Positions 29,816 through 62,134 of a DNA stretch of 64,000 bases are shown in pieces. Numbering within the stretch: the first letter of the stretch is position 1; every line of letters begins with the position of its first letter. The stretch lies in the IMG/VR virus record IMGVR_UViG_3300049219_000004; one strand, written 5' to 3'. This stretch comes from a virus (Duplodnaviria > Heunggongvirae > Uroviricota > Caudoviricetes). The translations under genes and the position numbers were made by a program. The notes below the pieces were generated by a model. That model was not told the origin of the DNA, did not search any database, and saw only the letters and a program-made list of their open reading frames with translations.

Positions 29816-30271
29816 TTAAGTAGCCAGTGGAACATCTACCAGTACCATAAATTGCTGACGAATATCTGCATGCTTCCGAGCAAGCTCTTCAGTTTTTAGT
29901 GCAATTGCCAAGTCTTCTCGTTTTGCAAGTGTGCTAGAAATGAAGCTGCGTTCAGAAGGTGTCATCCAAGTGTCATTAATTGTGAAGTCATTTTTATCTT
30001 TTAAAAGACTCCTGAGCATCAAACTTGTGTGGGTACGGTGGTAATATACCCGTACTTCGGTTCCGCTATATCTAGGCCCTTCGACAACTTTCCAGTCCTC
30101 CAACTTCAAAAGTGATGCGGCCAAAGACTTAACAGGCTCAGAAATGTCTTGAGTTTCCTCGTCTAGAATTTCTTCCAAGTCTGCTGCATATTCCAGAGTT
30201 AACTTTAGCTCCAACTCTGGAAATTTTGATTGTTTTGAAAGCCAATTAAACATCAATCCTCCTTCAGCCAC
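29816..30271 (-). CDS. hypothetical protein, translationally coupled partner of macro-domain gene
   Basis: 151 aa, start overlaps macro-domain gene 3' end by 19 nt. Confidence 0.5.
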   Translation of the reverse strand: MAEGGLMFNWLSKQSKFPELELKLTLEYAADLEEILDEETQDISEPVKSLAASLLKLEDWKVVEGPRYSGTEVRVYYHRTHTSLMLRSLLKDKNDFTINDTWMTPSERSFISSTLAKREDLAIALKTEELARKHADIRQQFMVLVDVPLAT

Positions 30272-30732
30272 AACGTAGCGTCTACATCATGGAACACAGC
30301 TTGAAAGATAGCAGTGAGACGCTTCACGTCACCACCGCCCAGCCCACCGCCAATCATCGGTAGGTAGACAGGAAGGTTGTCAGCTAGTGCTACATCTCGC
30401 ACAGATTCTAGAGCCTTAATTACAGCGACATAGCTAACATATTGCCTACCGTCACGTCCATAGTTCTCTTGGGTAATAGCATTGCAAACAATCACTGAGG
30501 TAATGTTTGTCTTCTTCACAAACTGAGTAGAACCTAAGTCAAAACCGAAGTCGTTGTACTCTTGCTTGTAAGCTTCAAACGCATGCGGGTAGAGCTTCTT
30601 GACGAGAGCTGCTACGCCACTGCCCATCACACCTTTTGCGTTACAACCGTGAACGAAGATAACTCCTTCTCCAGCTTCATGTCTCTTCAGAAGTTCGTTG
30701 AATACATCACCAGATTCAATTTTAAGTGGCAT
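30253..30732 (-). CDS. macro domain protein (ADP-ribose binding/processing)
   Basis: 159 aa; GVIFVHGCNAKGVMGSGVAALVKK matches the macro-domain nucleotide-binding core (vvNaANxxlxxGgGVxxAI), C-terminal GGGLGGG glycine loop. Confidence 0.7.
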   Translation of the reverse strand: MPLKIESGDVFNELLKRHEAGEGVIFVHGCNAKGVMGSGVAALVKKLYPHAFEAYKQEYNDFGFDLGSTQFVKKTNITSVIVCNAITQENYGRDGRQYVSYVAVIKALESVRDVALADNLPVYLPMIGGGLGGGDVKRLTAIFQAVFHDVDATLWLKED

Positions 30733-31140
30733 TATTTTATTCCTTTATCGTACTAGATCAATATACTGGCCGAATTCTCGATCAAACACACTGATAAGAT
30801 TTTCATAATCGGAGGATTGCATTTCAGTGACTATAGCTTCAGCGTTCAATCCAAGTTTCTTCGCCATATCTTTCCTTTCTTCGGTACATTCCCCATCGCC
30901 TTACAATGGGAGCATTTACAGGTACACTTCTTTGCCATCACTCCTCCTACGAACAAAAACTGACACGCTCACCTTGAAAGCCTGACTTTCGAATCATCTC
31001 GCCGTAAGCCTCAAGGGAGATGATTGCCTTGCCATTAATGTATCAAGCGTACGTGAAGAAACTCTTTCTTATAGTACCTTGTTGGATACTTACTAGTGTC
31101 AATTTAATCATTTCTTTCCTTTGTTGAACAGATAGGTAAC

Positions 31141-31170
31141 ATTGTATTGCTACCTACCTATTCGTGTCAA
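31141..31170 (-). promoter_or_regulatory. sigma70-like promoter on minus strand (TTGACA-18-TACAAT) reading into 30.7-31.1 kb leader and macro-domain operon
   Basis: Minus-sense TTGACA (plus 31165-31170), spacer CGAATAGGTAGGTAGCAA, TACAAT (plus 31141-31146). Confidence 0.45.
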
Positions 31171-31177
31171 GAATTAA

Positions 31178-32548
31178 TTAAGCAACGTAGTGACGCTGCC
31201 CCTTTTGAGAATGTGGGCCTGCATCATAAGCTTTCTTGCCTGCTTGCTTGGCATAGGCACGGGCTTGGTCACGAGTAGCAAAGAACGTGCTCTGCACACC
31301 ATGAGGCATATGATAGCGAACACGTGCACCGTTACCAGCCGTACCCAGTGGCAGGATTGCCAGAGGCTTCACAGGGGCTACCGAAACAGCAGGTACAGGC
31401 TTCTTCGATGCTACAGGTGAAGAAGTAGGCTTGCCAGTTGCAGGAGCCTGAGCCAATACAGGCACAACAGGAGCGTTGTTCTGACCAGCGTAGCGGGTCA
31501 AATCAGCCTGCGTTACAGGACGCCCTTTCTCTGCCCAGTACAGAATACCAGTACCAGCTACCAGCTTACGATTCACCGACTCCGATTGAATGAAGATGTC
31601 ATATTCCCCGTTGCCGTGGTTAGGGTGGATACGAGCATTGTTCACGGTATCCAGACCCAGCATCTTACGAGCATCAGGGCCAGCATACACTTTGCCAGTG
31701 GACTTCTCGCGGATCAGAATCAGCTTCGAAGGAGAAACCTTCGGCTCAGTTTTAGTGAGCTGGTAGAACGCACCACCAATCAGGTATTCAGTACGCTTCG
31801 ACAGAATGAAGTCACGAATCTGGGCACCATCGTGGAATTGATCCACTACGTACAGCGAAGTTTTAGCACTGATGTCCACCAGAGCCGAAGTGTTCACAGC
31901 CGACGTGTTGGTGTAGAACACGTTAGACGATTGAGCACCAGCCGAACGAGCGGAGAAGTAGGTGTTCATTGCTTGTGCAGTAGCCGCAGTGGACTTCTCC
32001 ATACCAGCAGAAGTAGTTTCCCATTCCTGAATGTTATCAGCCGGGATGCCCAGATTCATAACAGTGCTACGATGACCAGAAGGCACGCGGACAACGAAAG
32101 TCCAACGACCTGTACGTTGAACTGCTTCAATCTTCTGACGCAGGGACTGTGCAGTGTGAATCCGCGAACTGCACTCTTCACCGTCAGTAGTAGTCATGAC
32201 GAGGAACGATACGTGAGAGTCGTTTGCATCTGGCAGCGATTGGAACAGATCGATCATGTTTGCGATACCGTCGTACAGAGGAGTACCGCCCGGAGTAGGC
32301 CAGTCAACGACAGGCTTCAGCACGTGAGGATTCGACACAACGACTTGACGCGTTACTTCAGAGTCACGCGGATAACCGAAAGCCACCACCGATACGACAG
32401 TATCCAGCATTTCACGGGTGGCTGCTTCCTTCACAGTAGTGATGGTAGAGTTGTAGTCTTTAGTTGCTGCACGAGCACGAACGCCGCGCATGCTGCCAGA
32501 GTGGTCATTAACGAAGCCAATGTAGTTCTTAGGTTGTTTTTGATTCAT
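31178..32548 (-). CDS. von Willebrand factor A (vWA) domain protein
   Basis: 456 aa; N-terminal FVNDHSGSM = MIDAS DxSxS motif, later T and D residues consistent with vWA fold; C-terminal Pro/Ala/Lys-rich linker plus unknown domain. Confidence 0.65.
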   Translation of the reverse strand: MNQKQPKNYIGFVNDHSGSMRGVRARAATKDYNSTITTVKEAATREMLDTVVSVVAFGYPRDSEVTRQVVVSNPHVLKPVVDWPTPGGTPLYDGIANMIDLFQSLPDANDSHVSFLVMTTTDGEECSSRIHTAQSLRQKIEAVQRTGRWTFVVRVPSGHRSTVMNLGIPADNIQEWETTSAGMEKSTAATAQAMNTYFSARSAGAQSSNVFYTNTSAVNTSALVDISAKTSLYVVDQFHDGAQIRDFILSKRTEYLIGGAFYQLTKTEPKVSPSKLILIREKSTGKVYAGPDARKMLGLDTVNNARIHPNHGNGEYDIFIQSESVNRKLVAGTGILYWAEKGRPVTQADLTRYAGQNNAPVVPVLAQAPATGKPTSSPVASKKPVPAVSVAPVKPLAILPLGTAGNGARVRYHMPHGVQSTFFATRDQARAYAKQAGKKAYDAGPHSQKGQRHYVA

Positions 32549-32569
32549 TGTTATTTCTCCTTAGTTAGT

Positions 32570-32824
32570 TTAATTGATAGTGCTATTACGTTTTAGTTCT
32601 GCCGCTTTGAACACATCACGGACGAACATGCATCGAGACTGAGTATTCTCCAAGTAGAAGGAGCGACCGATGTAATCCCCGGACATGGTGTAAGCAAGTA
32701 CAGTGGAATCATCAATCACCTCTTCTACTCTGAAAACTGTAAGCAGTGCTTCGTAGTTTTCAATATCAGAGAACGCTACAACATCGCCAGCATAGAGCCT
32801 TTTACCGAAGATGTCGAGTGCCAT
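32570..32824 (-). CDS. hypothetical protein (84 aa)
   Basis: ORF 4 nt downstream of NAMPT-like gene stop. Confidence 0.4.
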   Translation of the reverse strand: MALDIFGKRLYAGDVVAFSDIENYEALLTVFRVEEVIDDSTVLAYTMSGDYIGRSFYLENTQSRCMFVRDVFKAAELKRNSTIN

Positions 32825-32827
32825 AGT

Positions 32828-34480
32828 TTATTGCTTCAGGCGTGCTGCAATTTCTGCAAACGTTTGGGTGTTGACAGCTTCACCGTCCATGAACACAGTG
32901 CGGAGTTCACCTCGCCGTTCTTCAATCTCGCCTTGCTTGTCATACAGGACAAACTTACCATCCTCCAGTTCGACACGTAGAAGGCCAGTAGCAGACTTTT
33001 TCATGCCATCCCCAGTAGCAGGGTCTTTCTGAATATCCCGTGCACCGCCGTCTACTTGGCCCCACGTCGCTTTCACGGCCATACCGAAGGTATCACGAGT
33101 GATATACTGGTAGGTGTACGAGCCAACGCCGAACACAATGTTACCAGCACTAAAGCCTTTGTCCATCAAGCGTTGCAGAATTTCTTCAGCACGTCTCAAC
33201 GTGATGCTGTCACCATAGATCAGGCCGACACGTTGGTTCAGAGTCTTGTAACCCTTCTCCGTCATGTCACCACCAAACACGTCCCACAGGCATTCGACTG
33301 CGCCCTTCACTTCGTGCTCTGGTACTTCACGACCGAGGATGAGACCGAAGTGCTGGCTGGGGCCGAATTCAAACACTTTACCGAAGATACGCACCGCATC
33401 ATACTCGTCTTCCAACTTGTACGAATTTTCAACGCTCACAAACACACGTCCGTCTTCCGACTGTTTGAAATTTGCTTCCGAGATGTCTTTGACACGCAGG
33501 CCCGCGACAATCTTCACAGGATCGCCCGAGTCAGGACGGAACACAACTTTCGCCATGCCCAGACCGTTCGGGGTACGGTTCAGGATGTCTTGACGCAGCA
33601 CAGCGGCAAACTCTGTAATCACTTTCCAGAAGTCCCACGTATCCGAGACGATGGACACGATGCCCGAAGGGTAGACATCCTTGATTAGACGGCGGAACGT
33701 GCGAATCTCGCTGTCTTTGCCACCCATGCACATTACGGAGTGTTCCGTGGCAGGTACGGAGCCAGCTACCAGTTCCTTCGTAACGTCAGCACCGTAGTAC
33801 TCTTCCAGATAATCCACAGCCGGAAGGGTATCAGTGCCACGCGAGATGAACAGATGAGCAGCACCAGCCTTAGCGGCACTCTGCCAGCCACACATACCAC
33901 GCATCGAGAAGTCATGAATCTGCCAGTCAGCAAATTCTTTAGACGAACCCGTGAGTTCCACGTATTTGTTCAGAATACGACGGTATTCGTAAGTAATGGT
34001 AGCTACGGTGATTTGTTGCCACAGCTCGTCCGACAGGACAGTTTCCAGATAATTCGTCAGCCAATAAAACTGAGGCAAAGTGTTACGAATCGTCAGGAAC
34101 GGAACTTTAATATCTACACGACTACCTTCAGGCAGGGCTTTGATGATGATAGGCAGATAGCCCAAATCATGCAGAGCTGCAATATGATCGGTGCGTACTG
34201 CGTTCTCACCTAGGAACGTATCACAGCGACGTTTGTACTCAGCAATCACTTCGTCCTTTGGACGCTTGAAGAAGTGTTCGTTCCACGCTTCAATCAGGAA
34301 CTCTTGGACGAAGCCTCGCAAGCCAACGAATACAACTTTGTTGTCGAACATGTCGCCCATATTAGCGTGAGCAGCACTACGAGCTGTCAGATTGGAATAC
34401 ACATAATCGGTGCCTTCCGGGTACTGGTCGATGTGACCTAGCTTGTAGCTATCCAGAATCAGATGTGGTTTGATTTTCAT
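32828..34480 (-). CDS. nicotinamide phosphoribosyltransferase-like protein (NAMPT/NadV family; candidate Namat of a NARP1-type NAD+ reconstitution pathway)
   Basis: 550 aa; N-terminal NAMPT region (MKIKPHLILDSYKLGHIDQYPEGTDYVYSN.., GYLPIIIKALPEG) and overall length typical of NAMPT; adjacent to Prs-like gene. Confidence 0.85.
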   Translation of the reverse strand: MKIKPHLILDSYKLGHIDQYPEGTDYVYSNLTARSAAHANMGDMFDNKVVFVGLRGFVQEFLIEAWNEHFFKRPKDEVIAEYKRRCDTFLGENAVRTDHIAALHDLGYLPIIIKALPEGSRVDIKVPFLTIRNTLPQFYWLTNYLETVLSDELWQQITVATITYEYRRILNKYVELTGSSKEFADWQIHDFSMRGMCGWQSAAKAGAAHLFISRGTDTLPAVDYLEEYYGADVTKELVAGSVPATEHSVMCMGGKDSEIRTFRRLIKDVYPSGIVSIVSDTWDFWKVITEFAAVLRQDILNRTPNGLGMAKVVFRPDSGDPVKIVAGLRVKDISEANFKQSEDGRVFVSVENSYKLEDEYDAVRIFGKVFEFGPSQHFGLILGREVPEHEVKGAVECLWDVFGGDMTEKGYKTLNQRVGLIYGDSITLRRAEEILQRLMDKGFSAGNIVFGVGSYTYQYITRDTFGMAVKATWGQVDGGARDIQKDPATGDGMKKSATGLLRVELEDGKFVLYDKQGEIEERRGELRTVFMDGEAVNTQTFAEIAARLKQ

Positions 34481-34507
34481 TTGTTCTCCTTTGGTTGTTA
34501 AGTAAGA

Positions 34508-35086
34508 CTACATAGTAGCAGATAGTTTTACGAATGTACAGCCCCTGTGTGACTTTCTTTTGCCAAGCAAGACTGCGGATATAAGGCGGAAGTCAAAGCC
34601 CTTCCGCTTCATATCTTCGTTACCGTACATGGTTGTCACGAGTTTTCCAGCTTTGTCATATACCTCCACAGCCCCGGTGAATGCGAAAGCTTTAGCAGCG
34701 AACGGGTGATCAACAAATAGGCCGCTATCAATGGCATGATCTTTGTTCTCTTCGTTAGTCGCCCACTCTAAGTTGCTGATAATGTTATTAGTCTTATCCC
34801 CGTCTTTGTGGTTTACTTGAGGTTTGTCGTCGGGGTTAGGAACGAAAGCCTCTGCTACTAGCCGGTGTACCTTTCTAGTGAACTTACTGCCGCCCACGCT
34901 GAGGCGTACGCGAGAGTATCCCCGCTTGTCAGGGTGGGGAGCTAACACTACCCCACCAATAACACGACTTGGCTTGTTATCACTGAAAGTCAGGAGCCTT
35001 ACAACACTTCTGACCTTCCCATGATTACTAACCTCGTAAAACCCTTCGAAGCCATTACAGCTTTTCCAAGATTCCGTAGGTGTCAT
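34508..35086 (-). CDS. HNH homing endonuclease (NUMOD4/HNH_3 type) inserted between NAMPT-like and Prs-like genes
   Basis: 192 aa; N-terminal ..WKSCNGFEGFYEVSNHGKVRS.. and ..HRLVAEAFVPNP..KPQVNHKDGDKTNNIISNLEWAT.. are hallmark free-standing phage HNH endonuclease motifs; overlaps Prs-like gene start. Confidence 0.7.
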   Translation of the reverse strand: MTPTESWKSCNGFEGFYEVSNHGKVRSVVRLLTFSDNKPSRVIGGVVLAPHPDKRGYSRVRLSVGGSKFTRKVHRLVAEAFVPNPDDKPQVNHKDGDKTNNIISNLEWATNEENKDHAIDSGLFVDHPFAAKAFAFTGAVEVYDKAGKLVTTMYGNEDMKRKGFDFRLISAVLLGKRKSHRGCTFVKLSATM

Positions 35087-35870
35087 TCGCCTTGTCCCTT
35101 CTCATATCATTCGCCACGTAAATCTTATCCAGTACACCGTGGAACTTGTCCACGCCAGCGCTGAACAGTCCGTGGGTAACGTACAAGCAAATCTTCCCAG
35201 TTGTGAGCTTGCGTAGCTCTGTAGCAAGAGCCACAAACGTCCCGCCAGCATCAAGAATGTCGTCCACGATTAGGAAGTCTTGGTTGCCGATGTGTGGGAT
35301 ACCAACGGTGCTGGTAGCTACAATCTTACCGCTAGCAAGGTCGCGTACCTTGCTAGCTTGTACAAAACCAACGAAGCCGCCCTCTTGTGCAAATTTGTGT
35401 GCTTTCTTCGATGCTCCTGAGTCAGGAGCTACGATGATAGTGTTAGCAATGTTTTTACGCAACTGTGGACGGCTCGACATCGCCCATTGTTCATGTACTA
35501 CAGTGTTATTGAACAAAGCAGCAGTAACATCTGAATGCGGGTCGAGGATGCAGACGGCTTCAAAGTTTAAGGCATTGATGAAGTCTGCTACTACTTTAAT
35601 GGACAAGCTTTCACCTTCATTGCAAACACGGTCTTGACGAGCGTAAGGCGCATATCCCATCCACAGTTTCAACTTCTTAGTCGGAAACTTCCTGCGGCAG
35701 GCATCAGCCAATAAGGCTAGATCGAATAGATCACCGTTATTCTCGAACGCCAGTTCCAGAGTTAGGTCAGGTTCCAATGGAGAGTTCATGGTTACACGAA
35801 TGCACGACTCACCTCCGGGGAACGTTGTCTTGGTGAAGCCTTCGGGGTAGCCTACAATATGAACGCTCAT
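35055..35870 (-). CDS. ribose-phosphate pyrophosphokinase (PRPP synthetase)-like protein; candidate ADP-ribose pyrophosphate synthetase (Adps) of NARP1
   Basis: 271 aa; PRPP-binding loop FLIVDDILDAGGTFVALATEL and ILDPHS motif of Prs family; shorter than bacterial Prs. Confidence 0.8.
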   Translation of the reverse strand: MSVHIVGYPEGFTKTTFPGGESCIRVTMNSPLEPDLTLELAFENNGDLFDLALLADACRRKFPTKKLKLWMGYAPYARQDRVCNEGESLSIKVVADFINALNFEAVCILDPHSDVTAALFNNTVVHEQWAMSSRPQLRKNIANTIIVAPDSGASKKAHKFAQEGGFVGFVQASKVRDLASGKIVATSTVGIPHIGNQDFLIVDDILDAGGTFVALATELRKLTTGKICLYVTHGLFSAGVDKFHGVLDKIYVANDMRRDKANDTYGILEKL

Positions 35871-36064
35871 ACGTATGCTCCTTCACGGAGTACACGAATC
35901 CAGCACTCGCCTACTTCTTTGTTTTTTACACGCTTGATGTCACAGTATGACCCAGCACGAATCTTCTCCAGTGGACATCCGTTCTCGCCAAGCGCACGTG
36001 ACAGGTTTGGGTTATAGCACCAGCCGGGAATAAACCGGCCTTCACGTTTGTTACGACTCTGCAT
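35867..36064 (-). CDS. small Cys-rich protein (65 aa)
   Basis: ORF overlapping Prs-like start; 6 Cys. Confidence 0.35.
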   Translation of the reverse strand: MQSRNKREGRFIPGWCYNPNLSRALGENGCPLEKIRAGSYCDIKRVKNKEVGECWIRVLREGAYV

Positions 36065-36486
36065 TACATGTTCTCCTTGTAAGTTGCGATACGATGCTTC
36101 AGACGAGCGATAGCAAGTTCCTTGTCAGTACAACCTACTGAAATAAGATCACCATACTCATCATACTTCGTATCAAAACCCAACGTAGCGTCCAACAATC
36201 CACTTGCATGACTGTGGAAAAGTTCTTTCATTGAGTTACACCCGAAGAGTTCATCACCTGCGTCGTTCCACACACTGACGCCGTTGACGGATGGAGTATC
36301 ATACTTATTCCATCTCATTCCTTGTGCTTGAAACTCTGGCATCGTACATGCCAAGCCAGCCACGCAGAGGATAGTTCCACATTCGGATTCCTGTTTCCAA
36401 GCGCACAGAGCGAATAACGCTTCAGGCTGTGCTTCTACTGCTTCCAGCAGCGTTTCCAGATTACTGATGATTGTTGCATTGCTCAT
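36064..36486 (-). CDS. hypothetical protein (140 aa)
   Basis: ORF coupled to neighbours. Confidence 0.45.
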   Translation of the reverse strand: MSNATIISNLETLLEAVEAQPEALFALCAWKQESECGTILCVAGLACTMPEFQAQGMRWNKYDTPSVNGVSVWNDAGDELFGCNSMKELFHSHASGLLDATLGFDTKYDEYGDLISVGCTDKELAIARLKHRIATYKENM

Positions 36487-36689
36487 TTTTCTTCTCCTTG
36501 TTCAACGTCCGAATACGGACAGTTTTCAACACCGGGGCATGAAAAGCCACCAGCATCCTCTTGTTGCTCACATTGACAACGCTTGTTGCGCTTCTTATTA
36601 AACGTTACAAGGTACTCTTTATATTCGTCCCATTCAGTCATCACAGCTTCCATAGGTTGGTTGCAGGAAGTCACAAAGAAGCGCAACAA
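36483..36689 (-). CDS. small Cys-rich protein (likely starts at internal Met ~36654)
   Basis: CQCEQQEDAGGFSCPGVENCPY; overlaps next ORF, internal start preceded by CCAACCT. Confidence 0.3.
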   Translation of the reverse strand: MLRFFVTSCNQPMEAVMTEWDEYKEYLVTFNKKRNKRCQCEQQEDAGGFSCPGVENCPYSDVEQGEEK

Positions 36690-36816
36690 TTATAGCACAG
36701 AACATAACTGTGGTGCAGTGCCAGCGTGCCGGCTCACTCCACAGCGCAATATTGAAGTTTGCCGCACCAAAGGCAAAGCCAAGATAAACTACCAACACTA
36801 CAATTGCAATTTTCAT
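36634..36816 (-). CDS. small membrane protein (60 aa)
   Basis: Start preceded by conserved leader ACTTCCAACTTACTAAGGAGGAAAAATG; hydrophobic N-terminus. Confidence 0.35.
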   Translation of the reverse strand: MKIAIVVLVVYLGFAFGAANFNIALWSEPARWHCTTVMFCAIIVALLCDFLQPTYGSCDD

Positions 36817-37214
36817 TTTTCCTCCTTAGTAAGTTGGAAGTATTTCATAATATTGTGTACATGATGCCTACGCTCTCCACGGAGAAAGATCAGTTGAGTA
36901 TTGCCTACATAAACTTCCTCGCTCTTGTACTCAGCAAGAATGAAACCGTTCTCGCTTAGCTCTTTAAGCCACTCGTCATCATACAACCAGCTACGAAGTT
37001 GGTCAATTGAAACGAAGCCATAGTGAAGCGTCTCGATCTTGGTATATGCTCGATGGCCAGCAGCAGTAATACTCGCAATAAGCAAACTGTCACGCTCTGG
37101 TTCAGGATGTCGAGAATCAGTAGAGTACGAGCTAATTTCATACAGCCCTCCCATACCACTGTATATCCCGCGCCTGTTATCTTTACGTTCGACACGGTAC
37201 ACAATTTGCTTCAT
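36813..37214 (-). CDS. hypothetical protein (133 aa)
   Basis: Start preceded by CCAACTAACGAGGG leader. Confidence 0.45.
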   Translation of the reverse strand: MKQIVYRVERKDNRRGIYSGMGGLYEISSYSTDSRHPEPERDSLLIASITAAGHRAYTKIETLHYGFVSIDQLRSWLYDDEWLKELSENGFILAEYKSEEVYVGNTQLIFLRGERRHHVHNIMKYFQLTKEEK

Positions 37215-37255
37215 GTTCGTCCCTCGTTAGTTGGTATGAACGAGAGTATGTACTG

Positions 37256-37741
37256 TTAGCTATTTTCTGTCAAGTAGTTTGGAAAAATAATTTCGCATTT
37301 GTCCTGCAACAGATCGAGAGCATCAGCACTGATACGGAGCGGATACAGAATAGCCCGCTTCTCTAGAGCAATCATCCGGTGAAGCATGTCCAAACTTCCG
37401 GTACTCTCTCCGTCCCATACAACCAACGCACAATCTGCCACCTGTGCCATTTCCTCGTTACGCCAGTGACCCGCCAACAAATTAAATGGCTTGCCATTCT
37501 TATTGTAACGAACGACAGCGCCGGCAGCTTTGATATCGTCCCAGTTCGCAGGCTTAGCGATTGGCTTCTTCAGTCCAGCTTTCTCTGCGAAGATGAGTCC
37601 ATGCTTATCTGGGCCTTCAGCAAGCCCAGAGACGACGACAATACTCTTCCCGTATTGATGCCACAAACCGCTGTTGATAATAGCTTGACGCGTGATGTTA
37701 TAGTCTTTAATGCTACGAGAGCCTGCGATAATTAGCTTCAT
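37256..37741 (-). CDS. SLOG-superfamily (DprA/LOG-like, DUF2493-type) Rossmann-fold protein
   Basis: 161 aa; MKLIIAGSRSI..VVVSGLAEGPDKHGLIFAEKAG matches the GSR..SGxAxGxD motif of Smf/DprA-LOG nucleotide-binding domains. Confidence 0.5.
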   Translation of the reverse strand: MKLIIAGSRSIKDYNITRQAIINSGLWHQYGKSIVVVSGLAEGPDKHGLIFAEKAGLKKPIAKPANWDDIKAAGAVVRYNKNGKPFNLLAGHWRNEEMAQVADCALVVWDGESTGSLDMLHRMIALEKRAILYPLRISADALDLLQDKCEIIFPNYLTENS

Positions 37742-37920
37742 GTTGCTTGTTCCTTGCTAAGTGCATCCAAATACTCGTTGGTGCAGCGGACAGCATTTTC
37801 GTGTGGCATGTGCGGTGCATAATACAGGAACAGAATCTCCCAGAGGGAAGGTTCAGGCCCGGACTCTACTCGGGCGATTTGAGGCTGAAATTCGGCCAGT
37901 TGATGGATTGTTTTCGTCAT
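37738..37920 (-). CDS. hypothetical small protein (60 aa)
   Basis: ORF coupled to SLOG gene. Confidence 0.3.
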   Translation of the reverse strand: MTKTIHQLAEFQPQIARVESGPEPSLWEILFLYYAPHMPHENAVRCTNEYLDALSKEQAT

Positions 37921-38105
37921 TGCATCGATCCTCCGTCAGCAAATACTACGCCAGCCTTGCCACAGCAAGTACACACCTTATTCTGTACGTGATAGGTAGC
38001 CAGATAGCCATTTACCTTGCCCATATAGACAGGGCCGTACACCCAATCATGAACCCCAAAGAAGCAGAAAAATTTAGTCATAGTTTCTCCATAGATTGTA
38101 CCCAA
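37917..38105 (-). CDS. small Cys-containing protein (62 aa)
   Basis: CTCCGKAG motif. Confidence 0.3.
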   Translation of the reverse strand: MGTIYGETMTKFFCFFGVHDWVYGPVYMGKVNGYLATYHVQNKVCTCCGKAGVVFADGGSMQ

Positions 38106-38377
38106 GCATTCGGGTTATCATCAATCATAACATCAATTCGAATACCTTGCTTGTACATGTAAGGCTCCTTAGCTTTACGATTGGTTGCATAAAAGCCATG
38201 CACCTTACCGTCTAGGGCTTCATACACTTGATGCATTTCCGATTCACTACGCCACGTCACAACGTAGATTTTGTGTCCAGCTTTACGTAGCACTTCCAAT
38301 ACTTTATCCCATGTCTTAGGATCACGAGTGAATGTATCGTCGTAATCAAGTCCGATGTTCATTGCAATATCCTTCAT
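38078..38377 (-). CDS. minimal HAD-superfamily phosphatase-like protein (99 aa)
   Basis: Motif I IGLDYDDTFT (DxDxT), motif II T (VVTWRS), Lys in RKAKEPY, motif IV IDVMIDDNP. Confidence 0.45.
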   Translation of the reverse strand: MKDIAMNIGLDYDDTFTRDPKTWDKVLEVLRKAGHKIYVVTWRSESEMHQVYEALDGKVHGFYATNRKAKEPYMYKQGIRIDVMIDDNPNAWVQSMEKL

Positions 38378-38537
38378 TTTGTTGTTTTACAGCCTCTTGT
38401 CTCGCCGTTTTTCTATTAACCCTGTCAACGGTTTGACGACAGGTGCGATCTTTACCAGACTTACCTGCACAGCAGCCGTACTTGCACTCCAGTTTATCCC
38501 TTCGACTGTGACCATAAGGTTTCATTTCATTCTCCAA
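38346..38537 (-). CDS. small Cys-rich basic protein (63 aa)
   Basis: CKYGCCAGKSGKDRTC..C..H; SD GGAGAATGAAATG. Confidence 0.3.
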   Translation of the reverse strand: MENEMKPYGHSRRDKLECKYGCCAGKSGKDRTCRQTVDRVNRKTARQEAVKQQNEGYCNEHRT

Positions 38538-38572
38538 AATAAAAGGCTAGCATACCCGAAGATATACTAGCC
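38536..38572 (-). terminator. rho-independent terminator (minus strand)
   Basis: 10-bp hairpin GGCTAGCATA/TATACTAGCC with 8-nt loop, followed on the minus strand by UUUUAUUUU. Confidence 0.5.
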
Positions 38573-38584
38573 TGTCAAGTAGTA

Positions 38585-39071: not shown

Positions 39072-39296
39072 TTATTTGAAATGTTTCATCAGTCCTTGGA
39101 AACCCCCAGCTACGAACAACTTATCCCCTTCGTAAATCTGAGGCATAGCCCGATGACCTTCCTTCTTCAAGAACTCCCATGCTTCTGGGTTCTCATCGAT
39201 CTTCACAACTTCAAAGTCAATACTCTTCGATTCCAACAACTTGGTGGCTGACACGCAAGCAGCACAACCTTCCATACTGTAAACAGTTAATTTCAT
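39072..39296 (-). CDS. glutaredoxin/NrdH-like redoxin
   Basis: 74 aa; MEGCAACV redox-type CxxC near N-terminus and ..GHRAMPQIY.. (G-x-r-T/M-P-Q-I) glutaredoxin fold motif; adjacent to RNR genes. Confidence 0.65.
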   Translation of the reverse strand: MKLTVYSMEGCAACVSATKLLESKSIDFEVVKIDENPEAWEFLKKEGHRAMPQIYEGDKLFVAGGFQGLMKHFK

Positions 39297-39308: not shown

Positions 39309-41063
39309 TTATTGGCAGCTCAAACACTCAGATGAAGAGGACACTACAGCACGGCTTGAGTAGATGTAGTATAGGCTATGAATATTCTCGTCCTCAAACG
39401 CAATCTGATGAAGCTCTGCGATGTACTCCTCAGTCACCCCTTTAGACAGGTAGATGTTGATGCTCTGTCCTTGGTCAATCTCTTTTTGTGCTACGGATGC
39501 CAAGCGCAACACCACACGCTGGTCAACCTCGAATGCAGTTTTGAACACAGCCTTCTCTTCTTCCGTTAGCCAATCAACGTGTTGTACAGAGCCGTAGCCT
39601 TGCACTACATCCGAGATGCATTTCTTGACGTTCAATCCTTTACGTTTAATTAGGGAGAGTAGTGGAGGATTCACTCGATCCACTTCACCAGCAGAAGTTT
39701 TCTGGGTGAAGCTCATCGCTGTATCCAGTCCACGTCCTTCACTGATTCCACCCATAATCAGCGCAGTAGACTTAGTAGGAGCTACAGATAGGCGGTGGGT
39801 GAAACGTAAACCATATCCAACGCACCACTCCGGTTCTCCAAGCTCTTTAGCCAACCATTGAGAAGCCTTCAGGGACTCTTTGTTCAAATGCTTGAAGAAC
39901 TCCGCATTAAACATGTAGGCATCAATACTCTCATAAGGCATCATGTGTTCTTGCATGTAAGTGTGCAAACCTCCAGCTCCTAGGCCAATAGCACGCCCAG
40001 CTTTCGTAGACGCCACGGCCTTTTCAAGCCCCGGAATCTTCTCCGCTTGTTCAATGAATTCGGACACAACGCAATCAAGGAACACAGTGGCTACTTGAAC
40101 AGCGTCGGTATCTTTCCACTCATCCCACTTTGATGCGTTCATCCATGCCAGCACACAGGTGTAAGTGTACTTAGTTGCATCGCTGTGCAGGAAGATTTCG
40201 GTACAAAGCTGGGAAGCCTTCACCATAAATCCCATGTCCTTGTACATCTTAGGACGGTTACGATTTACCTTGTCGATGAAGAAGAAATAGCCTTTGCCTG
40301 TTACCATCTTAACCCGCATCGCCCGATGGAAGCGTTCATGAGCTTCAAAATCTCCACGATTCAAAGCGTCGATAAACTCATCAGTAATGATCCAGCCGAT
40401 GTTCAAATCGTCATCATGCTTCTCAAGATAATTCACCACTTCCCAAAAATCACCATGCATGATGTTAAGGTATGCAGCCCAAGCACCACGACGGCTTTGG
40501 CCTTGAGTGACATCACGAGACATCTCAACGTGCATTTTAATTACTGGCATTACGCCGGAGGCTTTACCTCCACCTTTAGTGACACTACCACGGGGACGCA
40601 CAGGTGACAGATCAGTAGCAGTACCGAAACCTTCTTTCGACAATAGAGCCATCTCACGCAGATTAGAGTAGAAACCATTTACGGAATCATGCATCTCCGA
40701 TCCTGCACACGAGACAGCACAACCACGATCTGTGCCCATGTTCGCCAGCACCGGTGTAGAGCAGGCCACCCAACCATTCCACAAGACGTTGAAGAACTTG
40801 TCTGTCCAGTATTCTTCGTAGCTATCATAATTGCCCTGCATGTAACCTTTGAACGTACCTTCGCCGCTTCCCGGTAGTAGGGCATGTGGGGCATGCTTTG
40901 CAGCCGTACGTGCGATACGCATATACTGTTCACGAGGGTTCTCAGCTTCGTATAAATACTTCTCAACGAACATTTGGTAGCCTGCTGTTGGCATCCAATC
41001 CGGCACAGTGCCGCTTGCCTGTCCTTCCTTACGTGCCAAACTGAAACGTTCATACTTCGACAT
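39309..41063 (-). CDS. nrdA: ribonucleoside-diphosphate reductase large subunit (class I alpha, no ATP cone)
   Basis: 584 aa; active-site SQLCTEIF (N-x-C-x-E), C-terminal Cys pair ..ECLSCQ; adjacent small subunit. Confidence 0.8.
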   Translation of the reverse strand: MSKYERFSLARKEGQASGTVPDWMPTAGYQMFVEKYLYEAENPREQYMRIARTAAKHAPHALLPGSGEGTFKGYMQGNYDSYEEYWTDKFFNVLWNGWVACSTPVLANMGTDRGCAVSCAGSEMHDSVNGFYSNLREMALLSKEGFGTATDLSPVRPRGSVTKGGGKASGVMPVIKMHVEMSRDVTQGQSRRGAWAAYLNIMHGDFWEVVNYLEKHDDDLNIGWIITDEFIDALNRGDFEAHERFHRAMRVKMVTGKGYFFFIDKVNRNRPKMYKDMGFMVKASQLCTEIFLHSDATKYTYTCVLAWMNASKWDEWKDTDAVQVATVFLDCVVSEFIEQAEKIPGLEKAVASTKAGRAIGLGAGGLHTYMQEHMMPYESIDAYMFNAEFFKHLNKESLKASQWLAKELGEPEWCVGYGLRFTHRLSVAPTKSTALIMGGISEGRGLDTAMSFTQKTSAGEVDRVNPPLLSLIKRKGLNVKKCISDVVQGYGSVQHVDWLTEEEKAVFKTAFEVDQRVVLRLASVAQKEIDQGQSINIYLSKGVTEEYIAELHQIAFEDENIHSLYYIYSSRAVVSSSSECLSCQ

Positions 41064-42087
41064 TAGCTTCTCCCTTTACCTTCCAAACAAACCTATCTTC
41101 TTTCCAATGCGACGTGTACTCTCGTCCTTTACCTACGAAAAAGTCATTCATCATGTAACGTTGTGCTGCACCGTAGAACCACTCAGCAATCGGATTCTCG
41201 CCAATTTTCTTCTTGCTATACAAGACAGGTACACCTAAGTCGTTAAGACAGATGTTGATACGGCTCATGACAAACTGTTTCAAGCTCAGAGCTGTAACGC
41301 CAGTACCGATGTCTCCTTTTTCCATCAACATATCCGAGATGCGGAACTCATGTTCGGCTAGCTTCTTGGCTGCACGTCGAATACGGTTGCACAACGATTT
41401 CCACATCTTGTCAAACTCTTCCGTAGACAGGACATCTCGCAGTTCTTCAATAGCTGTACGGAATAACATAGCTCCGCCGATTTGATGCAGACCCTCATCT
41501 ACTAGCGATTGGTCGATACCTCGAACAGTGTTTCCGATGAAGTTATTACCTTTGCTTTGGAAGCTCTTGAACAATGCGAAGTTGGAGAACAGTACAGCAC
41601 CTTCCATCATCGAGAAGACAGCTACACTTAACAGATCGTCTTTACTGTCTACCATCTTATCTAGAAACTTTACACGAGCATTTAGTACCTCATCATCTAC
41701 GTACGAAGTATAAAATTCATCAGTATCAAGGCCCAGTACTTCATTCAGCTTGTTGTAGAACGGGGCATGAACTTGAAGTTCGAATGCTCCGAACACAGAG
41801 GCCATACGTTGTACTTCAGGCCGTGGGAAAGTCTTCATTACACGTCCCATCCAGTATTCAGTACCGGCAAACATCTCGTAGCGTGTGAACAGCTTGAGGC
41901 CGGTTGTAATAGCATGACGTGCTGCCGGCTTCACATTAATCAGCATATCTTGCTTATCTTTTTCTACTGAAATTTCGTTAGCAGTCCAACGGCAATCCTC
42001 AAACTGGGTATCAGCTAGTTTGATAAATTCCGGGTATAGCGTAACGTAGCTATCAGTAGGAGTCATAATTCTTGCTTTTTGCATCAT
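41050..42087 (-). CDS. nrdB: ribonucleoside-diphosphate reductase small subunit (R2, di-iron/tyrosyl radical)
   Basis: 345 aa; ferritin-like E..H ligand pairs (FELQVHAP.., EGAVLFSNFAL..), typical R2 length. Confidence 0.85.
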   Translation of the reverse strand: MMQKARIMTPTDSYVTLYPEFIKLADTQFEDCRWTANEISVEKDKQDMLINVKPAARHAITTGLKLFTRYEMFAGTEYWMGRVMKTFPRPEVQRMASVFGAFELQVHAPFYNKLNEVLGLDTDEFYTSYVDDEVLNARVKFLDKMVDSKDDLLSVAVFSMMEGAVLFSNFALFKSFQSKGNNFIGNTVRGIDQSLVDEGLHQIGGAMLFRTAIEELRDVLSTEEFDKMWKSLCNRIRRAAKKLAEHEFRISDMLMEKGDIGTGVTALSLKQFVMSRINICLNDLGVPVLYSKKKIGENPIAEWFYGAAQRYMMNDFFVGKGREYTSHWKEDRFVWKVKGEANVEV

Positions 42088-50777: not shown

Positions 50778-51569
50778 TTATTTCCCTGCGTTCACGATAC
50801 CTTTGAAGTCGTAAGGAACGACGATGGTCTGAACCTTACCTTCCGCGATGCCTTCAGCAATCTTCATTTGAGCCTGAGCATTCATGTAGCTGATGGCACC
50901 TGCATTGGCGTTCAGGGCAGCGATACGTTCAGCTTCTTTCTTCGCAGTGCTCACTTGTACTTCTTTAGCTGCCAGCTCGGCTTTAGCCTGTACCAGTTGG
51001 TTAGCAGCATTGCTTACAGCAGCAGATGGAGCAATACTCTTCACTTGCACTTGAGATACGAGCAGGGAACCATCCAGCTTCTCACCTTTCAAAGTTTCCC
51101 TGATTTGGTCAAGAAGTTTCGCTTCAATTTCGGTACGAGAATCATTCATCTGAAGCGAAGGGTACTCCCGTGCCACTTTAAATACAGCATTACGTACAGT
51201 GGTTTGAAGGTACGAGTGCATCAGATAAGTAGTACCATCATCTGCCGAAGCGTGGAAGCTGTGGCTCTTATTGGTGTACAGATCAGAGACGCTGCTAGGG
51301 CTGATGTTGTACACCACCGTTACATCGAAGTCGGACATGGTGCTGTTGTCCGCTGCCAGTGGACTCAGGTTTTGTACGTCTACAGAAATCTCTCGTACTG
51401 GAAACTTCAGGATGTCACCTACAATCGTTTGATTGAAGGAACCAGCTACACGTTCCGTAGCTTCTACAGTTTTATCGAAGTTAACACGAAGGCCAACCTC
51501 GCCGGTGTTGATGCGGGTACAGCCGGTGAAAGCGATGGCAAATGCCAGTGCTGCAAAAATTTTCTTCAT
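50778..51569 (-). CDS. SPFH/band-7 (prohibitin-like) domain lipoprotein
   Basis: 263 aa; lipobox AFTGC, then ..GEVGLRVNFDKTVEATERVAGSFNQTIVGDILKFPVREISVDV.. SPFH core and C-terminal coiled coil. Confidence 0.65.
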   Translation of the reverse strand: MKKIFAALAFAIAFTGCTRINTGEVGLRVNFDKTVEATERVAGSFNQTIVGDILKFPVREISVDVQNLSPLAADNSTMSDFDVTVVYNISPSSVSDLYTNKSHSFHASADDGTTYLMHSYLQTTVRNAVFKVAREYPSLQMNDSRTEIEAKLLDQIRETLKGEKLDGSLLVSQVQVKSIAPSAAVSNAANQLVQAKAELAAKEVQVSTAKKEAERIAALNANAGAISYMNAQAQMKIAEGIAEGKVQTIVVPYDFKGIVNAGK

Positions 51570-58130: not shown

Positions 58131-58664
58131 TTAGTTTCCTTTCCCAGTAAGTTCGTAAAACCGTTGATTGTACTCCCATTCAGCATGTGCAGGCGACCAC
58201 GGATCAATCTTGATCTTGTACGGCTGCACGCCACGCAGAATCTCCCATTGTTGAGCCGCTGGAGGCATCAATTGAACCACTTCAGTAGCCAGCATACGAA
58301 GGTCTGCTTCTTTCGTTTCTGGGAGCATTGGAAAGGTAGTGCCAAATCGCTCTGCAACGGCCTTCTCAACACGTTTCTCAATCACTTGATACTCAGGCAG
58401 CATCATCTTTAAAGGTGTTGCTACGTCTCCCATGAAAGCTTCAGACGTATCGTGCAACAAGAACTCCAATGCCATTTTTGGGTCTTTGAATTGCAAGCTT
58501 CCAAGCACACAATGTTGTGCTACCGAGTACGGGAAACTGGTGTGTCCTGTGTAACGATTGATACGGCTCAAGGCCAACGCAACATCTTCAATCGTGAACT
58601 CCGATGTTTCCGGCGACATGAAGTTGAAGTATTTGCCGCTGTACATCATAATCTCTGGTGCCAT
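58131..58664 (-). CDS. HD-domain phosphohydrolase (YfbR-like 5'-deoxynucleotidase)
   Basis: 177 aa; H..HD motif (..YSVAQHCV.., ..LLHDTSEAFMGDVATPLK..) characteristic of HD hydrolases. Confidence 0.65.
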   Translation of the reverse strand: MAPEIMMYSGKYFNFMSPETSEFTIEDVALALSRINRYTGHTSFPYSVAQHCVLGSLQFKDPKMALEFLLHDTSEAFMGDVATPLKMMLPEYQVIEKRVEKAVAERFGTTFPMLPETKEADLRMLATEVVQLMPPAAQQWEILRGVQPYKIKIDPWSPAHAEWEYNQRFYELTGKGN

Positions 58665-59926
58665 TATTTCGTCTCCATCGTATAGTGTTTAGGGTTCTTA
58701 CCTTCGTGTAGCTCATTTAGGTGCTTCACAATGCTACTCAAAGCTTCACGTTCTTTCAGATACCCCGATTGCTTGCACCGATCATCAATCAGCGTTCCAG
58801 CAGCACGTGCTTCAAGAATAATAGCAACGTTAGCCAGTACACCTCCCAAGTTAGGAACTCCGTCTTTGGGATCAAATTCTTCACCAGCAACCCATGCAGC
58901 CAAATGACGCATTGCTCCGTCAATGTAGATGGACGCTTCCACAGGCGTATTGGCGTAGTTAGCCTTGCCATACTTCCCTGCCCCGTTGTAGAAGGCCAGA
59001 GCACCATAAGCGCTACCCAAGCTGCTCCACATACTCAAAGGAATGCTCTGAACGCCAAACTGTTTCTTAGGATTGGTGTCCAGTTGAATTACATTGTTAT
59101 CGTTACGTTGAGTTTCGAAATCATGCACAGGCACAGCTACGTCCTTGCCCAAGTCCCATGCCACGTCTTGCACCATATCTTCCATCGAAACGACAGATGT
59201 TTTCGCTGGCTTTTCTGGCTGCAACGTGTATGCCACAACTTGATACTCTTCGTCCACGGCTACGCCGTCTGGAGAGTGAGTGCCAAATGTGACAATATCA
59301 TCGGCTTCCCGCGTCGAGCCGCCTCGGAGCCTTACCCGTGCGGCATTAGTAGGTGCAGGGTCTTTAGCAGGATCATGGGCAATCCAACCATCCTTAGATT
59401 TCTTGTGTCCTACAACCTTGTAGCTGACGATATCTCCAGCTTCTCCGGTGTCAGTCCATCGCAAGTGTCGTGCTTCTCCTTGCGCTTTTCGTCCCGTAGC
59501 CATTTTGTAGGCTACAACAGCATCTCCACGTACAGGGCAACCAATGAAACTGTTAGGCGTAGCCGTCTTATCCCATTTACGGGCCTTAGCACGTTTCTTT
59601 TGTGCTTTGCTCTCTTCACGCTTGATCTTACGTACTGTTTCAGCGGCTTCTAGCACGTAGTTACGAGATACTTCAGTGTAGTCGTCGTAGCCGAAGTCCT
59701 CTGGAACGATATCAAAACCTTCCGCGTAAGAAATTTCACAGTTCCCGTTTACGCGAAGATAGGCTGCATCGGTGAGTCCTCGTACTTGACGCTTACCTTC
59801 GTCTTGGTAAGCCCATCGGAAGCCCATCTTAAAGAATGCTTTCTCGATGTCCGTAGTATCCTCTCCCGCAACACGGATGAAGCTGTTCTTGAACTGACTG
59901 GTAATCTTATTAGTTGCTACGCTCAT
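58664..59926 (-). CDS. hypothetical protein (420 aa), replication-module protein of unknown function
   Basis: Large ORF between primase-helicase and HD hydrolase with its own promoter and strong SD. Confidence 0.5.
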   Translation of the reverse strand: MSVATNKITSQFKNSFIRVAGEDTTDIEKAFFKMGFRWAYQDEGKRQVRGLTDAAYLRVNGNCEISYAEGFDIVPEDFGYDDYTEVSRNYVLEAAETVRKIKREESKAQKKRAKARKWDKTATPNSFIGCPVRGDAVVAYKMATGRKAQGEARHLRWTDTGEAGDIVSYKVVGHKKSKDGWIAHDPAKDPAPTNAARVRLRGGSTREADDIVTFGTHSPDGVAVDEEYQVVAYTLQPEKPAKTSVVSMEDMVQDVAWDLGKDVAVPVHDFETQRNDNNVIQLDTNPKKQFGVQSIPLSMWSSLGSAYGALAFYNGAGKYGKANYANTPVEASIYIDGAMRHLAAWVAGEEFDPKDGVPNLGGVLANVAIILEARAAGTLIDDRCKQSGYLKEREALSSIVKHLNELHEGKNPKHYTMETK

Positions 59927-61742: not shown

Positions 61743-62134
61743 CAGTAGTCTAATTTCCTTGTAACGTGGTATTCATCGTAGATGCCCTTAGGCTCCTTGT
61801 GCTGCTCAGCAGACCGGATATGCCACTCCACTGCATTACACTTGTAAGGCTCCAAGTCTTCTTCAACCCACGCATGGGAAATCTGCATTCCAGAGATACA
61901 ACTTGTGTCTTCCAAGGACACAAATCGAATGCTCCCTCCGTCCTCATGTTTAGCAGTTCTGGTGAACACATTGAAAGAGAAGCCGTTAGGCTTTCCTACA
62001 AGGTTAATCAACGTATGCCATGCGTTCTGAGCCTTGCTCCATGTACTGAAGGCGAACAGCACCTTAGAGTTAGGATCAAACTTTGCAAGCATCAGTGCGT
62101 ATTGAAGCCTGTACTCAAGCGCTTTCTTCCTCAT
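61742..62134 (-). CDS. hypothetical protein (start likely at internal Met; longer frame overlaps ThyX-like gene)
   Basis: ORF coupled to primase-helicase start. Confidence 0.35.
   Translation of the reverse strand: MRKKALEYRLQYALMLAKFDPNSKVLFAFSTWSKAQNAWHTLINLVGKPNGFSFNVFTRTAKHEDGGSIRFVSLEDTSCISGMQISHAWVEEDLEPYKCNAVEWHIRSAEQHKEPKGIYDEYHVTRKLDY

Follow-up and report, generated by a model that had tools for sequence, protein, structure and literature searches.

NARP1 is a two-gene operon in which a Prs-like enzyme, Adps (ADP-ribose pyrophosphokinase), is encoded beside a Nampt-like enzyme, Namat (nicotinamide ADP-ribose transferase) (Osterman et al. 2024, bioRxiv 10.1101/2024.02.11.579819; PMC12774641). 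The clamp-helix signature GSXΦXΦXΦTRD separates Namat from Nampt, and the clamp-loop of Namat (SCL) is poorly conserved (PMC12774641). RES-domain defence proteins (aRES) degrade NAD+ to the 1''-phosphate of ADP-ribose (ADPR-1''-phosphate), which NARP1 cannot use; Adpp, a macro-domain phosphatase encoded by about 15% of NARP1 phages, regenerates ADP-ribose (ADPR) from it, and Adps, Namat and Adpp, the three families of NARP1-AP, jointly overcome aRES (Osterman et al., bioRxiv 10.64898/2026.01.28.702374). RyDEP, a RyR-domain glycosidase that converts 2'/3' cyclic ADPR (2'/3'cADPR) to ADPR, acts in synergy with NARP1 (bioRxiv 10.64898/2026.05.28.727677).

Here we compare these systems with positions 29816-38377 of a 64,000-nucleotide stretch of viral DNA, referred to as the window, from the Caudoviricetes record IMGVR_UViG_3300049219_000004. 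An earlier note on this DNA had proposed that a NARP1-like pair, a macro-domain protein, a vWA protein, a SLOG protein, a HAD phosphatase and Cys-rich mini-proteins form a single integrated system. We conclude that the stretch is the far end of an early/DNA-metabolism block, and that it probably holds one functional NARP1-AP module together with unrelated accessory genes. The plus strand of the window carries a structural and lysis block (1-28851) that converges on the minus-strand early/DNA-metabolism block (28912-64000), and the region of interest lies at the far end of the latter, downstream of genes for ribonucleotide reductase (RNR) alpha and beta (39309-42087) and glutaredoxin (39072-39296). 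The open reading frames (ORFs) that the note had named are all present on the minus strand. A megablast search of the region against 50,697 phage records gave no match and the large terminase is only 40% identical to those of Pakpunavirus-like phages; the phage is novel, uncultured and approximately 90 kb in size.

A Namat scan of IMG/VR yielded 80 loci, and 83 loci in total were searched for each gene of the region by BLAST and with profile hidden Markov models (HMMs) built from each family. Thirteen of the 80 loci (L004-L016), from phages of about 90 kb with Namat proteins 58-82% identical to that of the window, make up its lineage, and the remaining 67 NARP1 loci lie outside it. Genes were counted as near NARP1 when they lay within 10 kb. 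Reverse scans covered 58 loci with the vWA protein, 41 with the HAD protein and 80 generic phage loci (1.33 Mb) with the SLOG protein.

The Adps/Namat pair and its inserted endonuclease

Adps is encoded at 35055-35870 on the minus strand. It matches the Pfam families Pribosyltran, Pribosyltran_N and Pribosyl_synth, PHROG 619 (2e-75) and the NCBIfam ribP_PPkin subfamily (122 bits), and at 271 aa it is of the short phage type represented by PHROG 619. Namat (32828-34480, minus strand) matches NAPRTase and NAMPT_N in Pfam and PHROG 448 (8e-195), and contains the sequence GSYTYQYITRD, which fits the clamp-helix signature with aromatic residues at the X positions. The two genes are close together on the same strand, with a single gene between them. 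This encodes an HNH/NUMOD4 homing endonuclease (34508-35086, minus strand; Pfam NUMOD4 1.5e-13, HNH_3 7e-12) that overlaps the 3' end of Adps by 32 nt. Adps adjoins Namat in 80 of the 83 loci, and no endonuclease was found at the junction in any of the 13 lineage relatives. The window thus resembles the two-gene NARP1 operon in having a Prs-like Adps beside a Nampt-like Namat with the clamp-helix motif, and differs from it in that the pair is not contiguous and an accessory macro-domain phosphatase is present. On its domains and clamp motif the NARP1-like pair of the earlier note is predicted to be a true Adps/Namat pair. The note had also stated that no replication or structural gene intervenes in the region; none does, but the homing endonuclease sits inside it.

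The macro-domain protein and the three-enzyme module

The third enzyme is a 159-aa macro-domain protein (30253-30732, minus strand) of the Adpp (ADPR-1''-phosphate phosphatase) family. It matches PF01661 above the Pfam cut-off (E=1.5e-6; 28.5 bits against 22) and PHROG 335 (1e-36). When the window macro family was aligned with the validated Adpp of Vibrio phage Gary using hhalign, the two matched over their full length (145 columns) with a probability of 96.9% and E=1.4e-10. Profile matches in the PDB were to BT1257, SCO6735, Poa1p (6lfq/6lfu, E about 2e-5) and TARG1. It also aligns with other macro proteins that the aRES paper lists in its Table S1 as associated with NARP1. Residues H28, N31, G39, Q88 and P125 are invariant across the window family and six of these proteins, and all share a similar Gly-rich loop near residues 127-135.

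On the same strand as Namat, the macro gene follows it at a distance of 2.1 kb. It is the third or fourth gene after Namat, with at least an 84-aa protein gene (g84), the vWA gene and a 40-aa ORF in between, which puts it beyond the two-gene distance from Adps/Namat used operationally in the NARP1-AP paper. As the macro gene here falls outside that counting window, the published prevalence of 15% is probably an underestimate. The likeness to NARP1-AP otherwise extends to the same three families on one strand, the Namat specificity motif and a full-length Adpp homologue; the differences are the intervening 84-aa protein, 456-aa vWA-MIDAS protein and mini-ORFs, and the HNH homing endonuclease that parts Adps from Namat. 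In Pakpunavirus, the nearest cultured relatives by terminase, the order is Adps-x-Namat-x-macro, and in independent lineages the macro gene directly adjoins Namat. The three-enzyme core is therefore assigned, by homology, to the NARP1-AP module published in 2026 (bioRxiv 10.64898/2026.01.28.702374). The earlier suggestion that the region goes beyond the two-gene pathway stands insofar as the macro protein makes a three-enzyme pathway, but that pathway had already been described. The module is extended here into a large uncultured lineage of environmental phages of about 90 kb.

Two other assignments of the core enzymes have to be weighed against this one. An ordinary phosphoribosyl pyrophosphate synthetase and Nampt would make nicotinamide mononucleotide by salvage, and this is how Pfam and NCBIfam label the pair (ribose-phosphate diphosphokinase and nicotinate/nicotinamide phosphoribosyltransferase); moreover, the best database match of the window Namat (52%) is in a bacterial prsA-nadV-nadM cluster. 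The aromatic clamp motif is specific to Namat, however, the Prs-like protein is of the short phage type, the region has no Nmnat/NadM gene, and the pair is linked, as in NARP1-AP, to a macro gene of the Adpp family, so that we regard salvage as extremely improbable. The macro protein might instead reverse ADP-ribosylation of DNA, RNA or protein by host toxins, in the manner of DarG, a role that the earlier note had mentioned, or of TARG1. Weak profile similarity links it to TARG1/OARD1, SCO6735 and the macro domain of DarG (2e-8). On the DarG model NF048014, however, it scores 33.9 bits against a cut-off of 250, it lacks the C-terminal DarT-binding part, and it has no DarT neighbour. The full-length alignment to a validated Adpp and the macro genes of the same type next to Namat in independent lineages also argue against such a role, which is very unlikely. 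A DarTG system composed of the macro protein and the 151-aa ORF that overlaps it was rejected, the DarG score being far below the cut-off and the supposed partner an ORFan with no Pfam match. The region resembles the synergy of RyDEP and NARP1 in that an accessory gene beside NARP1 would turn a defence product into ADPR. The RyR domain (PF02026) had no match at E<0.01 in the 20 proteins of the region that were scanned, and a RyDEP-type accessory was rejected.

Proposed pathway

Family membership, the Namat signature, Adpp homology and the co-occurrence patterns place the module, and its enzymatic steps, modelled on the published biochemistry of homologues, would be as follows. A host NADase (SIR2, TIR, SEFIR and similar) would split NAD+ into ADPR and nicotinamide. 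Adps would pyrophosphorylate ADPR to ADPR-PP, from which, with nicotinamide, Namat would regenerate NAD+. Where an aRES defence yields ADPR-1''-phosphate, the Adpp-family macro protein would strip the phosphate and feed the product back to Adps. The NARP1-AP operon would have been invaded by the HNH homing endonuclease, and in this lineage only it also has the genes for the 84-aa protein and the vWA-MIDAS protein between Namat and Adpp. The SLOG protein, the HAD phosphatase, the Cys-rich mini-ORFs and the 151-aa ORFan would be ordinary accessory genes of fast turnover that by chance lie between the RNR/glutaredoxin genes and the NARP1 block.

Co-occurrence with NARP1

All 13 lineage loci retain the vWA, macro and Namat genes, and wherever a locus reaches far enough the order is Adps-Namat-g84-vWA-macro-g57, g57 being a conserved 57-aa membrane protein. 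The SLOG gene is found upstream in all sufficiently covered lineage loci except the two most divergent (8-10 of 13; it is absent from L015 and L016 or from loci that end short upstream), and the gene for the 99-aa HAD protein (HAD99) is kept in five of 13. Neither the endonuclease, nor the 151-aa ORF, nor several of the mini-ORFs were found in any relative.

Outside the lineage, 11 of 67 loci (16%) have a macro gene less than 10 kb from NARP1, mostly abutting Namat, in agreement with the published 15%. The corresponding numbers are 2/67 for SLOG, 1/67 for the HAD99 type (L036) and 0/67 for vWA. The reverse scans gave a similar picture. In the vWA scan, NARP1-AP was present in eight lineage loci. 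Homologues 47-56% identical to the window protein had no Adps, Namat or macro gene within 10 kb (L133, L134/135, L137, L142/143, L145, L146), and about 40 more distant 345-aa homologues, including those of Caulobacter phage Cr30 and mycobacteriophages Myrna and Phabba, were likewise without NARP1. The exceptions were L168, with a Nampt-like gene directly upstream, and L167 and BUCT-ZZ01, with NARP2-like genes 4-8 kb away. Beyond the lineage, only L097/L098 of the HAD99 scan had a Namat-like fragment, 9 kb away, and about 28 HAD99 loci, in addition to L089 described below, were without NARP1. Among the generic SLOG loci, Namat lay within 10 kb in four, which represent two independent contexts. 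In other lineages, then, macro genes turn up beside Adps/Namat, and vWA, SLOG and HAD99 mostly occur without them. The latter three travel with Adps/Namat only inside the lineage, which points to shared ancestry.

The vWA-MIDAS protein and its 84-aa neighbour

The vWA-MIDAS protein (456 aa; 31178-32548, minus strand) is a lineage-specific resident of the operon. It has the vWA fold and the metal-site motif DxSxS...T...D, the MIDAS being intact in all homologues. Behind the vWA domain come a second domain that is likewise conserved (about residues 215-340; AFYQLTKTE...QSxSxNRK), a linker rich in proline and a C-terminal domain of about 60 aa. Searching a viral structure library returned only generic vWA matches. 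The earlier note had placed this protein among nucleotide-processing folds; vWA is a protein-interaction fold, and in our view the protein is probably a MIDAS-dependent protein binder. Between it and Namat lies g84 (32570-32824, minus strand), conserved at this position in 10 lineage loci at 33-54% identity, with no Pfam, PHROG or NCBIfam match.

A cobaltochelatase model matched the vWA protein with E=2.8e-4 and 19.5 bits, against a cut-off of 779. No AAA+ (MoxR/CobS) partner was found among the proteins of the region and the large minus-strand ORFs at 39.3-64 kb, the plus-strand block 1-28851 lying outside the scan, and a CobT/MoxR-type system was rejected as no CobS or MoxR gene was present among the scanned minus-strand genes. 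With more than 1000 metagenomic homologues, the vWA gene of the lineage provides a marker.

In the 17.8 kb locus L132 (8917-11740) the order is Adps, a 72-aa ORF, vWA and macro, followed by a metallophosphoesterase-like ORF, with no Namat across the locus. In L137 (6479-11305) the RNR beta and alpha genes are followed after about 750 bp by a vWA gene whose product is 56% identical; since it begins so close to the RNR genes, the whole intervening region is missing there. A 4888 bp contig from JGI metagenome 3300049762 (L087) is 99.84% identical to window positions 29838-34732, with three indels; gene calling splits its vWA gene into ORFs of 95 and 359 aa, and in the window the gene is intact.

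Small HAD phosphatases

HAD99 (38078-38377, minus strand) is a 99-aa capless HAD-like phosphatase containing the four catalytic HAD motifs (DxDxT, S/T, K and DD). Its motif IV, IDDNP, is of the NT5C-like 'IDDxP' kind and resembles that of 5'(3')-deoxyribonucleotidases. Among 73 family members D11, D13, T41 and K70 are invariant, and T15, D86 and D87 are conserved in at least 90%. HAD99 resembles BT0820-type and NT5C-like capless HAD phosphatases in its DxDxT, T, K and DD motifs, its length of about 100 aa and the absence of a cap domain. It differs in that profile scores against them are marginal only (E about 0.01-0.02) and the family lies outside Pfam; over all searches E was about 0.003-0.03 (NCBIfam 0.003-0.015; BT0820/2obb in the PDB, E=0.016), with no significant HMM match. 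The family comprises 1032 clusters, mostly stand-alone proteins, and its fusion partners gave no functional clue.

A 65%-identical HAD99 is encoded beside glutaredoxin and RNR in L089, with no NARP1 within 10 kb. HAD99 is thus tied more consistently to the glutaredoxin/RNR module than to NARP1, and this recurrent neighbour is most simply explained if HAD99 is a phosphatase that acts on nucleotides in their metabolism. Most likely, to judge from its motifs and neighbours, HAD99 is a nucleotide monophosphatase tied to nucleotide-metabolism genes. In the 77 kb phages L124-L128 a HAD99-type gene and a SLOG gene, joined by a macro gene in L125 and L126, lie within 5 kb (e.g. L126:10004-14476), interspersed with genes for a DNA polymerase, a sigma-like factor and a 5'-3' exonuclease; no NARP1 gene is present within 10 kb.

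A second family of small HAD proteins, found outside the window, was defined by an iterative profile search starting from gp074 of crAss phage cr111_1, which is labelled 'phosphoheptose isomerase'. Its members are capless phosphatases of 135-150 aa (DFDNT...T...K...LLDDR) in which D33, D35, T37, T69, K104 and D112 are invariant. In eight of the 80 NARP1 loci, in both gene orders, such a gene lies exactly between Adps and Namat (L003:9469-9900, which is cr111_1 gp074, and L041, L045, L050, L058, L068, L075 and L076), and in a ninth case it abuts Namat (L248:2798-3241). A macro gene is absent from all eight loci. To HAD99 the family shows only a weak relationship (hhalign probability 37%). The papers on NARP1, aRES and RyDEP that were searched do not mention a HAD partner. 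The embedded family may represent a second kind of NARP1-associated phosphatase, and is a concrete lead to a further layer of the NAD+ arms race.

The SLOG protein

The protein encoded at 37256-37741 (minus strand) has the Rossmann-like SLOG fold and motifs of the DUF2493/YspA-like (PF10686) and DprA-like kind. It scores 18 bits on PF10686, against a cut-off of 28.2, and many homologues at 36-70% identity carry this domain. The family profile found nothing significant in the PDB, and the protein belongs to a very large phage family, PHROG 289. It shares with DUF2493/YspA-like proteins and with the Rossmann domains of DprA and ShosA the fold and the motifs AGSRS, GxAxGxD, AGxxRN and WDGxSxG, and differs from them in an insert of about 20 residues, a C-terminal extension and the lack of enrichment beside NARP1. 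Candidate ligands are a nucleotide, a cADPR isomer or single-stranded DNA. The fold assignments of the earlier note have thus mostly held, with the macro protein above its Pfam cut-off, the vWA and SLOG folds confirmed and the HAD motifs conserved, except that the HAD protein has no significant HMM match.

Small open reading frames and transcription signals

The 151-aa ORF (29816-30271, minus strand), which the earlier note had described as an unknown partner overlapped by the macro gene, does exist, but it is an ORFan without relatives, inserted between the macro gene and g57. It has no homologue in the 83 related loci and no Pfam, PHROG or NCBIfam match, and in 5.8 billion proteins its sole match is its own 99%-identical copy. 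Upstream of Adps, on the minus strand, are four small ORFs of 65 aa (35867-36064), 140 aa (36064-36486), 68 aa (36483-36689) and 60 aa (36634-36816), three of them Cys-rich, with homologues in seven, two, four and no loci respectively. Around HAD99, also on the minus strand, are ORFs of 60 aa (37738-37920), 62 aa (37917-38105) and 63 aa (38346-38537), the last two Cys-rich; in related loci only the 62-aa ORF has a homologue, in one locus. At least six Cys-rich mini-proteins had been reported, whereas we count five (4-5 Cys, 6-8%; 35867-36064, 36483-36689, 36634-36816, 37917-38105 and 38346-38537), two of which overlap each other.

A 133-aa PHROG 1106 protein (1e-23) is encoded at 36813-37214; homologues occur in L018, a NARP1 locus unrelated to the lineage, and in two loci of the lineage. 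In the gap between the vWA and macro genes, an ORF of 30-36 aa (30846-30956, minus strand; MAKKCTCKCSHCK...) is preceded by an AGGAGG ribosome-binding site. Its sequence overlaps that of the 40-aa ORF (30745-30867) where the latter starts, and probably no more than one of these ORFs is genuine.

A sigma-70-like promoter match (TTGACA-18-TACAAT, 11 of 12 positions; 31141-31170, minus strand) lies just past the stop codon of the vWA gene. It is a match to the consensus only, and the 22 promoter-like matches in the region do not exceed the shuffle expectation of 17.5 +/- 4.1. From this site the macro unit could possibly be transcribed on its own. Several relatives have only 25-90 bp between the vWA and macro genes. 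A terminator-like hairpin, a pattern match with a 13-bp stem followed by a T-run (38544-38573, minus strand), is located between the unit of RNR, glutaredoxin and a 140-aa ORF and the downstream genes, HAD99 among them.

Alternative readings of the neighbouring genes

The broadest alternative is the integrated island proposed at the outset, in which the macro, vWA, SLOG, HAD and mini-proteins would act with Adps/Namat to reverse ADP-ribosylation or NAD+ depletion and to recycle the products. The genes of the region do all share one strand and are separated by short gaps, synteny of the block is preserved among lineage relatives, and the unrelated phages L124-L128 have HAD99-type, macro and SLOG genes in a cluster of less than 5 kb. 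That trio, however, is scattered among replication genes and lacks NARP1, the vWA, SLOG and HAD99 families are all but missing near NARP1 outside the lineage, and in the reverse scans each occurs mostly without it. Even the closest relatives lack conserved counterparts of the mini-ORFs and the 151-aa ORF, and the hairpin and promoter-like sites subdivide the region. The co-occurrence counts and reverse scans do not bear out the grouping of vWA, SLOG, HAD and mini-proteins in one system, which we judge very improbable indeed. A module with unrelated neighbours nevertheless has points of its own to answer. The vWA gene is kept between Namat and macro down to 44% vWA and 58% Namat identity, and with the Adps-72aa-vWA-macro order of L132 this is greater persistence than a pure bystander would lead one to expect. 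Most lineage members retain the SLOG gene upstream of Adps. Small HAD phosphatases recur with NARP1, both as the HAD99 type in L036 and as the other family between Adps and Namat in eight loci. Finally, the macro gene may have its own promoter and might then be transcribed apart from Adps/Namat.

Within the lineage it is possible that the vWA protein works with NARP1, an association unsupported outside it. It might be a fourth component of NARP1-AP peculiar to the lineage, either a MIDAS-dependent binder that blocks an effector NADase of the host, by analogy with aRad1, which blocks aRES, or a scaffold for the three enzymes. Its constant place between Namat and macro, in the 13 Namat-scan loci and in the more divergent L090 and L136 from other scans, would fit such a role, as would the arrangement in L132, the intact MIDAS site, the Nampt-like gene directly upstream of a distant homologue in L168 and the NARP2-like genes of BUCT-ZZ01 and L167. 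For most homologues, however (Cr30, Myrna/Phabba, L133-L146 and some 40 more), neither NARP1 nor a macro gene lies within 10 kb. The vWA fold is not known to be connected with ADPR chemistry, and no AAA+ partner was found in the scanned part of the window; we consider a fourth component unlikely. Similar odds apply to HAD99 as a second accessory phosphatase of NARP1 that would supply Adps with ADPR made from another phosphorylated form, such as the 2'-phospho-ADPR that NADases release from NADP+. Its motifs are catalytically complete, L036, a locus unrelated to the lineage, encodes a homologue of 39% identity 340 bp upstream of the Adps-Namat pair, and 8 of 80 loci have a gene of an unrelated small HAD family embedded between Adps and Namat, in both gene orders. 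With small HAD phosphatases recurring beside NARP1, HAD99 could still feed the pathway. Against this are its retention in only five of 13 lineage loci, the L089 copy beside glutaredoxin and RNR, the roughly 28 other family loci without NARP1, the weak similarity to the embedded family and the motif IV, which resembles that of 5'(3')-deoxyribonucleotidases. Rather unlikely too, if slightly less so, is the wider proposal that small capless HADs form a second class of NARP1 accessory phosphatase unrelated to Adpp, with HAD99 and possibly vWA as further accessories widening the range of NAD+ breakdown products or host effectors that are handled. While we prefer a NARP1-AP module with unrelated neighbours, the vWA protein and the small HAD phosphatases stand apart from the ORFan and the mini-ORFs as neighbours worth testing.

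Other genes of the window

Further upstream, the minus-strand block (58131-59926 and 62115-63095) encodes a ThyX-like protein and a 420-aa protein whose N-terminal domain is that of dATP/dGTP diphosphohydrolases (PF18909), the latter adjoining an HD-domain YfbR-like 5'-deoxynucleotidase. This combination suggests editing of the dNTP pool, and possibly modified DNA. Amid the early genes, positions 50778-51569 encode a protein with an SPFH/Band-7 domain (E=1.7e-19).

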